Source of the DNA: Pseudorhodoferax sp.
Lineage (GTDB): Bacteria; Pseudomonadota; Gammaproteobacteria; Burkholderiales; Burkholderiaceae_C
Assembly (NCBI GenBank): GCA_965279475.1
Contig: CBDIIA010000001.1
Span: 360,933-424,932 of the forward strand
Reading direction: 5' to 3'
Length of the DNA: 64,000 nt
Part shown: in pieces, positions 28,428 through 30,315 of the stretch
How the letters are laid out: every line of letters begins with the position of its first letter
How positions within the stretch are numbered: position 1 is the stretch's first letter
The notes under the pieces: model-generated
Databases searched by the model: none
Seen by the model: only the letters and a program-made list of their open reading frames with translations
What the model was told of the DNA's origin: nothing
Position numbers and translations under genes: made by a program

Positions 28428-29040
28428 ATGTTCGCACCCCCCGAACGCCTGCAGGCCGAAGTCTTCGCCCGCATCCCCGAACGCTTCCACGTGACCGGGC
28501 GCGTCGAGCCCTGGCTCGAACGCGCGCGGCTCGAGCGCTTCAAGGGCTGCGACGACCTGTTCTTCGCCTCCAACGGCGACCTGTAGTTCACCGACCAGGG
28601 CCAGACCGGCCTGCACGACCCCAGCGGCCGCCTGTTCCGCCAGCGCCCGTCGGGCCAGCTCGACGTGGTGCTGGTCGGCATCCCCAGTCCGAACGGGCTG
28701 GTGATGAACCTCGACGAGACCGCCGTCTACCTGGCGGCCACGCGCGCCAACGCCATCTGGCGTGTGCCGCTGATGGCCGACGTCACGGCGACCAGGGTCG
28801 GCACCTACATCCAGATGTCGGGCGGCGGCGGGCCGGACGGCATCGCGCTCGACGCGCAGGGCGGGCTGGCCGTGTGCCACGTCGGCTTCGGCGCGGTGTG
28901 GATCTTCAGCCCGCGCGGCGAGCCGCTCTGCCGCATCGATTCTCCCGAAGGCCCGTACACGACCAACTGCGCCTACGGTGGCGCGGACGGCCGCACGCTG
29001 TACATGGTCGAGTCGCGCTCGGGCTGCATCCTGACGGTCC
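28428..29040 (+). pseudogene. SMP-30/gluconolactonase/LRE-family lactonase remnant (internal deletion, in-frame TAG, 3' end replaced)
   Basis: MFAPPERLQAEVFARIPERF...FASNGDL*FTDQGQTGLHDPSGRL...GIPSPNGLVMNLDE...GGADGRTLYMVESRSGCIL. GGAGA Shine-Dalgarno before the ATG. Confidence 0.6.
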
Positions 29041-29079
29041 CAAAGAAAAAGGGGCGTCCGACTCATGTCGGACGCCCCT
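29041..29079 (-). terminator. Rho-independent terminator of the SPFH-protease-rtcB operon
   Basis: Perfect 13-bp stem AGGGGCGTCCGAC/GTCGGACGCCCCT with loop TCAT, followed on the minus strand by TTTTTCTTT. Lies 19 nt after the rtcB stop. Confidence 0.7.
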
Positions 29080-29097
29080 CGATGGCCTGGCGTCTGG

Positions 29098-30315
29098 TCA
29101 GCCTTTGACACACACCACCTGCTTCAGGGTGTGCACCACCTCCACCAGATCGCGCTGCGCCTGCATGACCGCGTCGATGTCCTTGTAGGCCGCCGGCGTC
29201 TCGTCGATGACGTCCTTGTCCTTGCGGCATTCGACGCCCTCGGTCGCGGCACGGTGGTCCGCCAGCGTGAAGCGGCGCTTGGCTTCGCCGCGGCTCATCA
29301 CACGCCCGGCGCCGTGCGAGCAGCTTTCGAACGACTCGGGGTTACCCTTGCCGCGTACGATGTAGCTGCGTGCGCCCATGCTGCCGGGGATGATGCCCAA
29401 CTGCCCCGCCTTGGCGCTGACTGCGCCCTTGCGGGTCAGGTAGACCTCCTCGCCGAAGTGCTGTTCCTTGCTCACGTAGTTGTGGTGGCAGTTCACCGCT
29501 TCGATGTGGCTCTGGAAGTTCTTGTGGATCACCGTCTTCGCGGCTTCGATCACCCGGCGCATCATCACCTCGCGGTTGATGGCCGCGAACTTCTGCGCCC
29601 AGCCGACCGCACGCACGTAGTCGCCGAAGTAACGCGCACCCTCTTCGAAGTAAGCGAGATCGCGGTCCGGCAGATGCACGTTGTGGCGCTGGGCGTCCTG
29701 CTTCGCCAGCTCGATGAACATCGTGCCAATGAAGTTGCCGACGCCGCGCGACCCGGAGTGCAGCATGAACCAGACGCAGTGGTCCTCATCCAGGCAGACC
29801 TCGATGAAGTGGTTGCCGCTGCCCAGCGTGCCCAGGTGCTGGATGTGGTTGGTCTTGGCCAGCTTGGGATAGTCGCGGCACAGTTCGGTGAATTCGGGCT
29901 CCAGTTGCGCCCATGCGGTGTTGACCGAGCCCGGCGTCTTCTGCCAGGCACCCGGGTCGCGCGCACCCGGCTTGCGGCCATGCGGTACCGTGCGCTCGAT
30001 CGCCGCGCGCAGCGGCGCCAGGTTGTCCGGCAGATCCTGCGCGCGCAGCGTGGTCTTCGCGGCCATCATGCCGCAGCCAATGTCCACGCCGACAGCGGCG
30101 GGGATGATGGCCTTCAGCGTCGGAATCACCGAGCCCACGGTCGCGCCGATGCTGAAGTGCACGTCCGGCATGGCGGCGATGTGCTTGAAGACGATGGGCA
30201 GGCGCGCGGCGTTGGCCAGCTGGCGCATGGCCTCCTCCTCGATGGGAACGCCGCGCGTCCACATCTTCAACGGAACACCGCCCGGCACATCTTCTTCGAT
30301 GTAGTTCTGGTCCAT
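29098..30315 (-). CDS. rtcB: RtcB RNA ligase (3'-phosphate / 2',3'-cyclic-phosphate RNA-splicing ligase, E. coli-type)
   Basis: Collinear with E. coli RtcB from MDQNYIEEDVP...KMWTRGVP to the C-terminal ...TLKQVVCVKG. ATG at 30315 has Shine-Dalgarno AGGAGA 7 nt upstream; the track start at 30348 is a TTG. Confidence 0.9.
   Translation of the reverse strand: MDQNYIEEDVPGGVPLKMWTRGVPIEEEAMRQLANAARLPIVFKHIAAMPDVHFSIGATVGSVIPTLKAIIPAAVGVDIGCGMMAAKTTLRAQDLPDNLAPLRAAIERTVPHGRKPGARDPGAWQKTPGSVNTAWAQLEPEFTELCRDYPKLAKTNHIQHLGTLGSGNHFIEVCLDEDHCVWFMLHSGSRGVGNFIGTMFIELAKQDAQRHNVHLPDRDLAYFEEGARYFGDYVRAVGWAQKFAAINREVMMRRVIEAAKTVIHKNFQSHIEAVNCHHNYVSKEQHFGEEVYLTRKGAVSAKAGQLGIIPGSMGARSYIVRGKGNPESFESCSHGAGRVMSRGEAKRRFTLADHRAATEGVECRKDKDVIDETPAAYKDIDAVMQAQRDLVEVVHTLKQVVCVKG

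Follow-up and report, generated by a model that had tools for sequence, protein, structure and literature searches.

At positions 28428 to 29108 of the window (the whole 64,000-nucleotide stretch of Pseudorhodoferax sp. DNA analysed here), the remains of a lactonase gene on the plus strand run head-on into the 3′ end of rtcB, which encodes an RNA ligase on the minus strand. The lactonase belongs to the SMP-30/gluconolactonase/LRE (SGL) family, and the frame that contains it continues past the end of all detectable homology into DNA that serves the convergent gene. The present analysis concerns the nature of this junction and of the 6.3 kb of DNA that begins there. The features that define the two edges of that DNA are the following.

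28428–29039, plus strand: SGL pseudogene, identified by Pfam PF08450 and by alignment with intact lactonases and with the loci L081 and L085 described below.
29039..29040, no strand: left insertion junction, uncertain by 1–2 bp; lactonase homology ends at 29037–29038 and homology to the inserted cassette starts at 29040–29046.
29040–29108, plus strand: non-homologous read-through tail, PKKKGRPTHVGRPSMAWRLVSL*, antisense to the rtcB terminator and to the 3′ end of rtcB, with its TGA stop codon at 29106–29108.
29049–29080, minus strand: predicted intrinsic terminator of rtcB, with a 14-pair stem, a 4-nt loop and a T-run reaching 29039.
29098–30348, minus strand: RtcB RNA ligase, intact, 416 amino acids (Pfam RtcB PF01139, E = 6.7e-127, full length).
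35309..35310, no strand: right insertion junction; homology to L085 restarts at 35310, and cassette homology ends at 35266–35304.

The lactonase assignment is secure. The frame matches PF08450 with E = 6.6e-27 over profile positions 114–243 of 246, this match covering the residues after an internal stop, and it is 78–89% identical to intact lactonases of 304–316 amino acids, which are represented by thousands of matches in a large protein collection. The end of the homology was set by alignment with nine intact lactonases and falls at ...ESRSGCILTV, the final V being encoded by 29037–29039. Intact C-termini follow the pattern R-[LV]-P-x-x-G-[RKQ]-x-M-[YH]-[SG]-[HQ] plus a few residues. The open reading frame that ends in the chimeric tail spans 28665–29108 and would encode 147 amino acids; among about 15 billion proteins this product occurs on a single contig only. 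The chimeric frame and the TauD protein of the window (see below) are recorded from one shared 457-kb contig, apparently the source of the window itself, and these records are not independent evidence. An in-frame internal deletion of 261 bp (87 codons) near 28503, an in-frame TAG codon at 28584–28586 in place of a conserved Tyr, and replacement of the last 16 codons identify the frame as a genuine pseudogene, and these lesions leave no complete propeller frame of about 300 amino acids. Several apparent leads on the allele proved uninformative. The string VGRP in the tail recalls the conserved AGRP of lactonase C-termini by chance, the underlying DNA being the terminator stem that is kept after rtcB in relatives. 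Four lactonase entries of 203 amino acids (P0038, P0042, P0049 and P0059) were considered as the allele of the window and rejected, since their first residue is an internal Met, the N-terminal third is absent and the C-termini are normal. A metagenome scan with an exact 20-mer of the lactonase remnant returned eight matches, none of which is homologous to the window by blastn (E ≤ 1e-8), consistent with chance.

The DNA into which the lactonase frame reads can be attributed to rtcB. On the minus strand, the hairpin (29080–29049) begins 17 nt past the rtcB stop codon (29098–29100) and is followed by the tail TTTTTCTTTGG; its folding energy is −38.7 kcal/mol, with z = −5.7 relative to shuffled sequences. 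A hairpin and T-run occupy the equal position 3′ of rtcB in seven relatives (L001, L003, L004, L005, L009, L010 and L011), in which the stem carries compensatory changes and the sequence past the T-run is unrelated. This positional conservation after rtcB shows that the terminator belongs to that gene. A GC-rich hairpin followed by a T-run, past the stop codon and on the strand of the gene, is the predicted arrangement of an intrinsic (rho-independent) terminator. The original prediction, made from the window alone, had described a lactonase-like frame that passes into non-homologous read-through and had recognised the read-through as the reverse complement of a convergent rtcB terminator. Both descriptions stand: the elements lie where they were placed, the homology extends to the V codon at 29037–29039, and the hairpin is conserved behind rtcB in the seven relatives.

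Uninterrupted versions of the locus reveal what preceded the junction. In a Polaromonas metagenome-assembled genome (L081), IclR, FMN_dh, DctP, DctQ, DctM, SGL, TctC and TauD form one same-strand cluster. The locus with the closest lactonase (L085) carries DctM, SGL, TctC and TauD, and a Logan contig (L082), which ends soon after TctC, carries SGL and TctC preceded by a gene that is cut at the contig end, has no Pfam call and is homologous to the DctM remnant of the window. The SGL–TctC spacer measures 141–175 bp in these three loci, and two further lineages have the same operon gene set in permuted order. By blastn, L085 1342–1887 corresponds to window 28493–29038 at 87.7% identity and L085 1948–3936 to window 35310–37292 at 84.8%; the left breakpoint obtained from L081 is identical to that from L085. 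Between these collinear segments the window has 6,271 bp (29039–35309) where L085 has 60 bp, namely the final 49 bp of the lactonase gene, stop codon included, and 11 bp of spacer, and the TctC and TauD genes of the window consequently stand 6.3 kb to the right of the lactonase. Because the empty sites keep a complete lactonase 3′ end, the event was an insertion in the lineage of the window and not a loss in the others; its direction, like the positions of the two junctions, is read directly from the alignments. The junction is very probably the left edge of a 6,271-bp insertion (29039/40–35309) that brought an RNA-repair and spare-tRNA cassette into an IclR-regulated operon. A left insertion edge had been proposed for the SPFH–protease–RtcB segment together with the HNH and tRNA region, and the empty sites of L081, L082 and L085, with collinearity on both sides, bear the proposal out. 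Its placement of the far edge, near the tRNA cluster and a Cro-like gene at about 34.9 kb, needs adjustment: a Cro/CI-like gene does stand at the edge, but the edge itself is 35309, 12 bp past the stop codon of that gene, which places the gene inside the island.

The inserted block contains, in addition to rtcB, the following features, listed from left to right.

30345–31436, minus strand: ClpP-fold SDH-type serine protease, 363 amino acids (Pfam SDH_protease; NCBIfam Clp_like_SDH; syntenic in relatives).
31433–32569, minus strand: SPFH/Band-7 protein (Pfam Band_7 PF01145, E = 1.2e-28; relatives 70–85% identical).
32858–32932, minus strand: tRNA-like RNA, called tRNA-Val(CAC) by ARAGORN, just upstream of the SPFH gene.
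33134–33727, minus strand: HNH endonuclease, 197 amino acids (Pfam HNH_5/HNH; PHROG 16726, E = 8e-23; syntenic in 16 loci).
33746–34108, minus strand: short tRNA array, comprising Arg(ACG) at 34030–34108, His(GTG) at 33857–33929 and Leu(CAG) at 33746–33830 (ARAGORN, Rfam).
34119–34198, minus strand: conserved 80-nt non-tRNA element inside the array, near-invariant in eight loci, with two small hairpins.
34340–34410, minus strand: degenerate relic of the first array tRNA, Gly(GCC)-like, recognised by alignment with the tRNA-Gly of L011, L031 and L007.
34911–35297, plus strand: Cro/CI-like helix-turn-helix repressor, the last island gene, divergent from the array–rtcB operon (PHROG 12107, "transcriptional repressor", E = 6e-10).

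These contents are observed directly, and all protein genes of the cassette are intact and similar in length to those of relatives; the window RtcB is 80–91% identical to its relatives. The SPFH frame stays open as far as 32749; translation probably begins with MKIKR at 32569. Consecutive frames from SPFH through the protease to rtcB share 4 bp, an arrangement that suggests translational coupling. About 290 bp upstream of the SPFH start lies the tRNA-like RNA, the body of which is orthologous in six relatives. Across the seven loci the D and T arms hardly change, while the anticodon corresponds to Val, Phe, Thr, Ile or Met and the anticodon stem shows compensatory changes; the acceptor stem is short, and the gene lacks an encoded CCA. 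Comparison of these sequences indicates that 32858–32932 is probably a tRNA-like cofactor RNA of the b7a-tRNA type and not a decoder, and annotation as tRNA-Val(CAC) should be replaced by a tRNA-like RNA.

The 80-nt element, GGAAAYCGGCCGCAA.GAT.GGGCGGCGCCGGAACCCGTSACCGG, is set at tRNA-like spacing among the tRNA genes, and a run of eight T residues follows it in the window. Its homologues lie at 7869–7949 in L003 and 4804–4883 in L011, and further copies occur in L009, L010, L004, L024 and L006; the element does not fold into a cloverleaf, and no Rfam family matches it. The tRNA relic has lost its D-arm and its body is rearranged, between leader sequences that are conserved; neither ARAGORN nor Rfam calls a tRNA there in the window. 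A leader of about 800 bp (34109–34910) separates the tRNA array from the repressor. On its sense strand (window 34555–34900, minus), a promoter-like TTGACG-17-TACAGT overlaps the palindrome ATAGTAAAGACTAT (about 34862–34891). A small open frame after this site is conserved in five relatives, and past it stands a perfect 11-bp hairpin (34595–34567) followed by the T-run TTTTTTGTTTTCTG; upstream of the tRNA array, this hairpin could act as an attenuator or terminator. The repressor matches a phage CI structure weakly, is syntenic in 13 loci and marks with its stop codon the end of homology to relatives.

The operon that received the cassette is an IclR-regulated catabolic operon of sugar-acid type, comprising IclR, a flavin mononucleotide (FMN)-dependent dehydrogenase, DctPQM, the SMP-30 lactonase, TctC and TauD. 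Its remaining parts lie on either side of the block.

24295–25218, plus strand: IclR-family regulator, first gene of the operon, intact (Pfam HTH_IclR and IclR_C; collinear with L081).
25213–25238, plus strand: first copy of an operator-like 26-nt motif, between IclR and FMN_dh, one of the two matches in the window.
25252–26577, plus strand: FMN-dependent alpha-hydroxyacid dehydrogenase, intact (Pfam FMN_dh, E = 1e-129; collinear with L081).
26538–28405, plus strand: decayed TRAP transporter genes DctP, DctQ and DctM (global alignment with L081; partial Pfam DctM match).
35317–35342, plus strand: second copy of the operator-like motif, in the ancestral SGL–TctC spacer, directly past the block.
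35416–36396, plus strand: TctC/Bug-family binding protein, intact, with a GTG start, in the downstream half of the operon (collinear with L081 and L085 at 82–85%).
36414–37292, plus strand: TauD-family dioxygenase, intact, 292 amino acids (collinear with L081 and L085).

The TctC family was assigned by Pfam in the homologous genes of L081 and L085, and the length of TauD is equal in the window, L081, L083 and L085. Global alignment of IclR and FMN_dh with L081 shows small in-frame indels only, of 3–9 bp for IclR. The genes that follow have fared differently. Relative to L081, about 800 bp of DctP are deleted, DctQ is shortened and has lost its start, and DctM carries deletions of 84, 74, 27, 6 and 1 bp and matches its Pfam profile only over positions 135–407 of 413. 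Every lesion in DctP, DctQ, DctM and the lactonase (26538–28525) relative to L081 is a deletion, the sizes ranging from 1 bp to about 800 bp. The blastn segments that flank several of these deletions overlap in window coordinates, a pattern suggestive of short repeats at the breakpoints. Judged from these lesions, the transporter and lactonase part of the operon is dead, and its genes should be labelled as pseudogenes in annotation. TctC and TauD are intact and have their own operator-bearing spacer. The 26-nt motif, CAACAAGTTCAACATRCGAAAYTTCG, occurs in exactly two copies in the window where none is expected by chance, and its core is found at the two equivalent places in L081 (3774–3786 and 8950–8962). 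The IclR regulator probably uses this motif as its operator, and the presence of the motif on both halves of the operon, mirrored in L081, indicates that the two halves constitute one regulon.

The same block is found in other genomic contexts of related genera. A scan for RtcB in one genome per species returned 80 loci, the best of which (86–91% amino acid identity) come from Rubrivivax, Methylibium, Rhizobacter, Piscinibacter, Roseateles, Aquabacterium and Albitalea. About 12 Burkholderiales loci have the repressor, leader, tRNAs, HNH gene, tRNA-like gene and RtcB in this order, and the SPFH and protease genes are present in some and absent in others. By blastn, DNA homology to relatives runs from 29040–29046 to 35266–35304 and ends at the terminator T-run on one side and at the stop codon of the repressor on the other; these end points coincide with those at which operon homology restarts in the window. 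What flanks the block changes with the genome: among the neighbours are genes for a TonB-dependent receptor, an M16 peptidase, cytochrome c, a sensor kinase, tannase and GST as well as gyrB and glmS, and none encodes an integrase or transposase. Translated comparison of the flanks by tblastx was kept only at ≥55% identity over ≥70 amino acids, the unfiltered output having given masses of spurious high-GC matches. Because the flanking housekeeping genes are unrelated between genomes, the block can be regarded as a discrete unit that occupies different chromosomal sites. The cassette stands directly beside gyrB in L031 (10–2475) and beside glmS in L005 (11291–13285); both genes belong to the core genome, and glmS is a well-known landing site of other mobile elements.

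The number of tRNA genes per cassette varies widely, from 0 to 18 across these genomes, with 18 in L007 (Albitalea terrae), 16 in L011, 11 in L003, 10 in L031 and 2–8 in others, compared with 3 in the window. Same-strand arrays of differing size and content lie upstream of HNH/rtcB in L003, L004, L006, L007, L008, L011, L019 and L031; comparison of the sequences points to rapid gain and loss within the array. PcfJ-like open frames occur inside the tRNA arrays of L004 (5390–6595) and L011 (5424–6875). The L007 cassette additionally contains RtcR and a Ro60/Rsr-like protein, and the gene directly after its rtcB resembles the RtcA gene of a Massilia locus (L044) by sequence match; these features of L007 lie at 4396–6009 (minus strand), 7890–9482 (plus) and 11259–12086 (plus). 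By gene content, L007 appears to link the array/Band-7 cassette with the classic Rsr–RtcBA repair operon. A short contig of 5.8 kb binned as Silanimonas, a member of the Gammaproteobacteria (L001, NZ_JAPZSC010000070.1), carries HNH, SPFH and RtcB at about 84–86% DNA identity to the window, representing either cross-class transfer of the cassette or a mis-binned contig. Scans of viral contigs with the HNH and CI-like proteins found no relatives. The Massilia locus itself was considered as an ancestral linkage or hot spot, since its rtcB lies about 4 kb from tRNA-Thr–sspB–sspA–petCBA as in the window; it has, however, an rtcB–rtcA pair followed by flavohaemoglobin and TPR genes, and because no cassette parts are present there the resemblance is taken as coincidence.

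How the block entered is a separate matter from where it lies. No tyrosine or serine integrase gene is found in 29040–35309 or the adjacent genes, nor among 13 flanking genes scanned in eight relatives. Direct repeats matching a tRNA 3′ end had been anticipated at both edges; a search for repeats of ≥8 bp and for 9–10-mers of any of the five tRNAs found none at either junction. In keeping with the lack of a recombinase, target duplication and terminal repeat, incoming DNA would have entered by illegitimate (non-homologous) recombination, at the cost of about 60 bp of target, or entry could have begun with repair of a break made by the HNH enzyme of the cassette itself. With these bases replaced, the truncated lactonase frame continues antisense to the rtcB terminator until it meets a stop codon by chance. 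The transporter and lactonase genes, being unselected, would have gathered their deletions either before the insertion, as the already decaying lactonase of the original prediction implies, or after it. A more ambitious proposal is that the whole block is a recombinase-less mobile unit, bounded by the repressor stop codon and the rtcB terminator and moved by its own HNH enzyme or by break repair, which arrived as a defence against tRNA-cleaving toxins by supplying spare tRNAs and a ligase. This proposal is speculative and on balance unlikely; if it is true, the window would be the first case in Betaproteobacteria in which such a unit is documented at a filled site alongside matching empty ones.

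Several observations weigh against the interpretation of the junction as the edge of an inserted RNA-repair and spare-tRNA cassette. The organisms with empty sites are only about 80–88% identical to the window in operon genes, and none is of the same species or genus. No direct or inverted repeat of ≥8 bp is common to the two junction zones, and no recombinase, transposase, terminal inverted repeat, att-like repeat or target-site duplication that would account for its movement was found at the block. GC content, GC skew, GC at third codon positions (GC3) and tetranucleotide usage do not mark the block as foreign: its GC content is 0.655 compared with 0.675 for the window, its tetranucleotide distance falls at the 87th percentile of equal-sized windows, and the GC3 of its genes is 0.85–0.89 compared with 0.84–0.93 for the neighbours, the leader and repressor region being somewhat AT-richer (GC 0.62). 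The compositional contrast with the flanks that the original prediction had looked to is thus not seen, and taken as a refutation test it would give a false negative; a host-like composition implies either that the donor was compositionally similar or that the insertion was not recent. The strongest compositional outlier in the window lies at 53000–57000, with GC 0.72–0.75, positive GC skew and the largest tetranucleotide distance. The function ascribed to the cassette derives entirely from homology and literature. The label of a long tRNA array depends on relatives, because the array of the window consists of three canonical tRNA genes, and the status of these tRNAs as extra copies is putative.

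Other histories can be envisaged for the same junction. The insertion might have taken place in an earlier host, with the operon and cassette arriving together as a composite (about 24.2–37.3 kb) beside tRNA-Thr (24060–24135) and position 29040 remaining as an internal scar. The left half of the operon does begin about 160 bp past tRNA-Thr, with a GC content of 0.70 compared with 0.63–0.65 for the pet and ssp genes to the left, and GC climbs from about 0.64 to 0.70–0.74 just past tRNA-Thr(TGT) (24060–24300), so that the operon may be an accessory region. The permuted order of the operon among lineages also suggests an accessory character, and TauD in the window lacks the RraA-like gene that comes next to it in L081 and L083. 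Against this, no integrase or att repeat is found near tRNA-Thr within the window, and a GC content of 0.70 falls within the range of the window (0.63–0.75). An earlier host is an improbable setting for the event, and the nature of the junction would be unchanged either way.

A deletion that removed intervening DNA, fusing the lactonase to a resident downstream rtcB locus, would account for a junction without a repeat and would suit the strong deletion bias of the surrounding genes, which relative to L081 have at least eight deletions and no large insertion. The ancestral spacer, operator motif, TctC and TauD nevertheless continue past the block in the order and orientation of the empty sites. 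A deletion-only fusion is so improbable that it can be set aside, because no deletion could leave 6.3 kb of unrelated genes between two parts of the same operon. The many related loci that come from metagenome-assembled genomes might instead raise the suspicion of an assembly artefact, in which two separate loci were fused into a chimeric source contig. Such an artefact requires two independent joins, placed precisely around a single conserved cassette within a single operon, at junctions neither of which has a repeat to mislead an assembler; in addition, the exact proteins of the window are recorded from a 457-kb contig, and the deletions of 74–800 bp in the neighbouring genes are unlike sequencing errors. 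A misassembly is accordingly scarcely credible, and insertion of the cassette into the IclR-regulated operon is the explanation adopted in what follows.

With respect to function, the repressor would silence the cassette until translation or tRNAs are damaged. The array would then supply extra tRNAs and RtcB would reseal cleaved ones, with the tRNA-like RNA, Band-7 protein and protease serving as cofactors or regulators. Parts of this arrangement are known from other organisms. The occurrence of RtcB next to a Band-7 protein and a b7a-tRNA was described by Burroughs and Aravind in 2016, as summarised in bioRxiv 10.1101/312249. To the extent of that summary, the window conforms to the description: it has an RtcB gene, a Band-7/SPFH gene in the same operon and a gene for a tRNA-like RNA that closely resembles a real tRNA, and the last fits the account given of b7a-tRNA. 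Compared with the neighbourhood as summarised there, the window adds the ClpP-fold SDH protease, the HNH endonuclease, an array of canonical tRNA genes and a divergent CI-like repressor, and the set forms one 6.3-kb unit found at different chromosomal sites.

Long tRNA arrays (L-arrays) provide a second point of comparison. They are horizontally spread, linked to HNH homing-type endonucleases and co-regulated with rtcB under translational stress (PMC8421152), and in Anabaena the array, rtcB, an HNH gene and a slipin/SPFH gene all answer to one repressor, TrcR (PMC10272220). The family to which the cassette of the window belongs shares the same-strand variable arrays, the HNH linkage, the tie to rtcB and the horizontal spread, and cassettes of four relatives (L003, L007, L011 and L031) have 10–18 tRNA genes compared with 2–8 in others; the slipin/SPFH connection of the TrcR regulon is present in the window, and both systems have a dedicated repressor, that of the window being predicted. 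Patchy horizontal spread with a linked HNH gene, by which L-arrays are recognised, is evident from the unrelated flanks, the filled and empty sites and the synteny of HNH in 16 loci. In contrast to L-arrays, the window keeps only three canonical tRNA genes with one tRNA-like RNA and one relic. Its repressor is a phage CI-like helix-turn-helix protein, whereas TrcR is of the ribbon-helix-helix type. The components that are scattered in cyanobacteria (array, HNH, slipin, rtcB and repressor), in Anabaena over the chromosome and a plasmid, are physically joined in the window and travel as one unit in these betaproteobacterial hosts.

The rsr-yrlBA-rtcBA operon of Salmonella is activated by RtcR, a sigma-54 activator, and includes Rsr/Ro60 and the Y RNA YrlA. 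Like the cassette, it is centred on RtcB and includes a tRNA-like noncoding RNA. Pfam detects no RtcR, Rsr/Ro60 or RtcA in the window, RtcR and Ro60 being found only in the relative L007, and the best Rfam match to YrlA in the window is at chance level (20.7 bits compared with a gathering score of 69). Because these parts are absent, the cassette is not an RtcR/Rsr/YrlA operon, and its regulation is presumably exerted by the CI-like repressor, in contrast to the RtcR-activated system. Integrase-type tRNA islands likewise consist of a discrete accessory block in the chromosome with tRNA genes nearby; the window differs in having no integrase and no repeat of a tRNA 3′ end, in that the target is the 3′ end of a protein gene, and in that the tRNA genes are cargo and not the attachment site. 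The cassette is neither an island of this type nor a transposon. HNH genes beside long tRNA arrays have been proposed to aid transfer by making breaks, by analogy with SegB, which drives homing of the tRNA gene region of phage T4 (PMC8421152). As with SegB in that account, a free-standing endonuclease gene stands beside a tRNA array in the window and could promote its own transfer and that of its neighbours. Homing needs homologous flanks, whereas the insertion in the window lies in an unrelated operon without flanking homology.

In sum, the cassette belongs to a known type, combining the Band-7/b7a-tRNA/RtcB neighbourhood with an HNH-linked tRNA array resembling the L-arrays, and is not a new kind of system; the junction is a clear but fairly ordinary insertion scar. 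The window shows, at base-pair resolution, a complete tRNA-array/RtcB cassette that came to lie within a working operon whose uninterrupted counterparts are found in other bacteria, and thereby supports the published idea that arrays and repair genes spread horizontally as modules.

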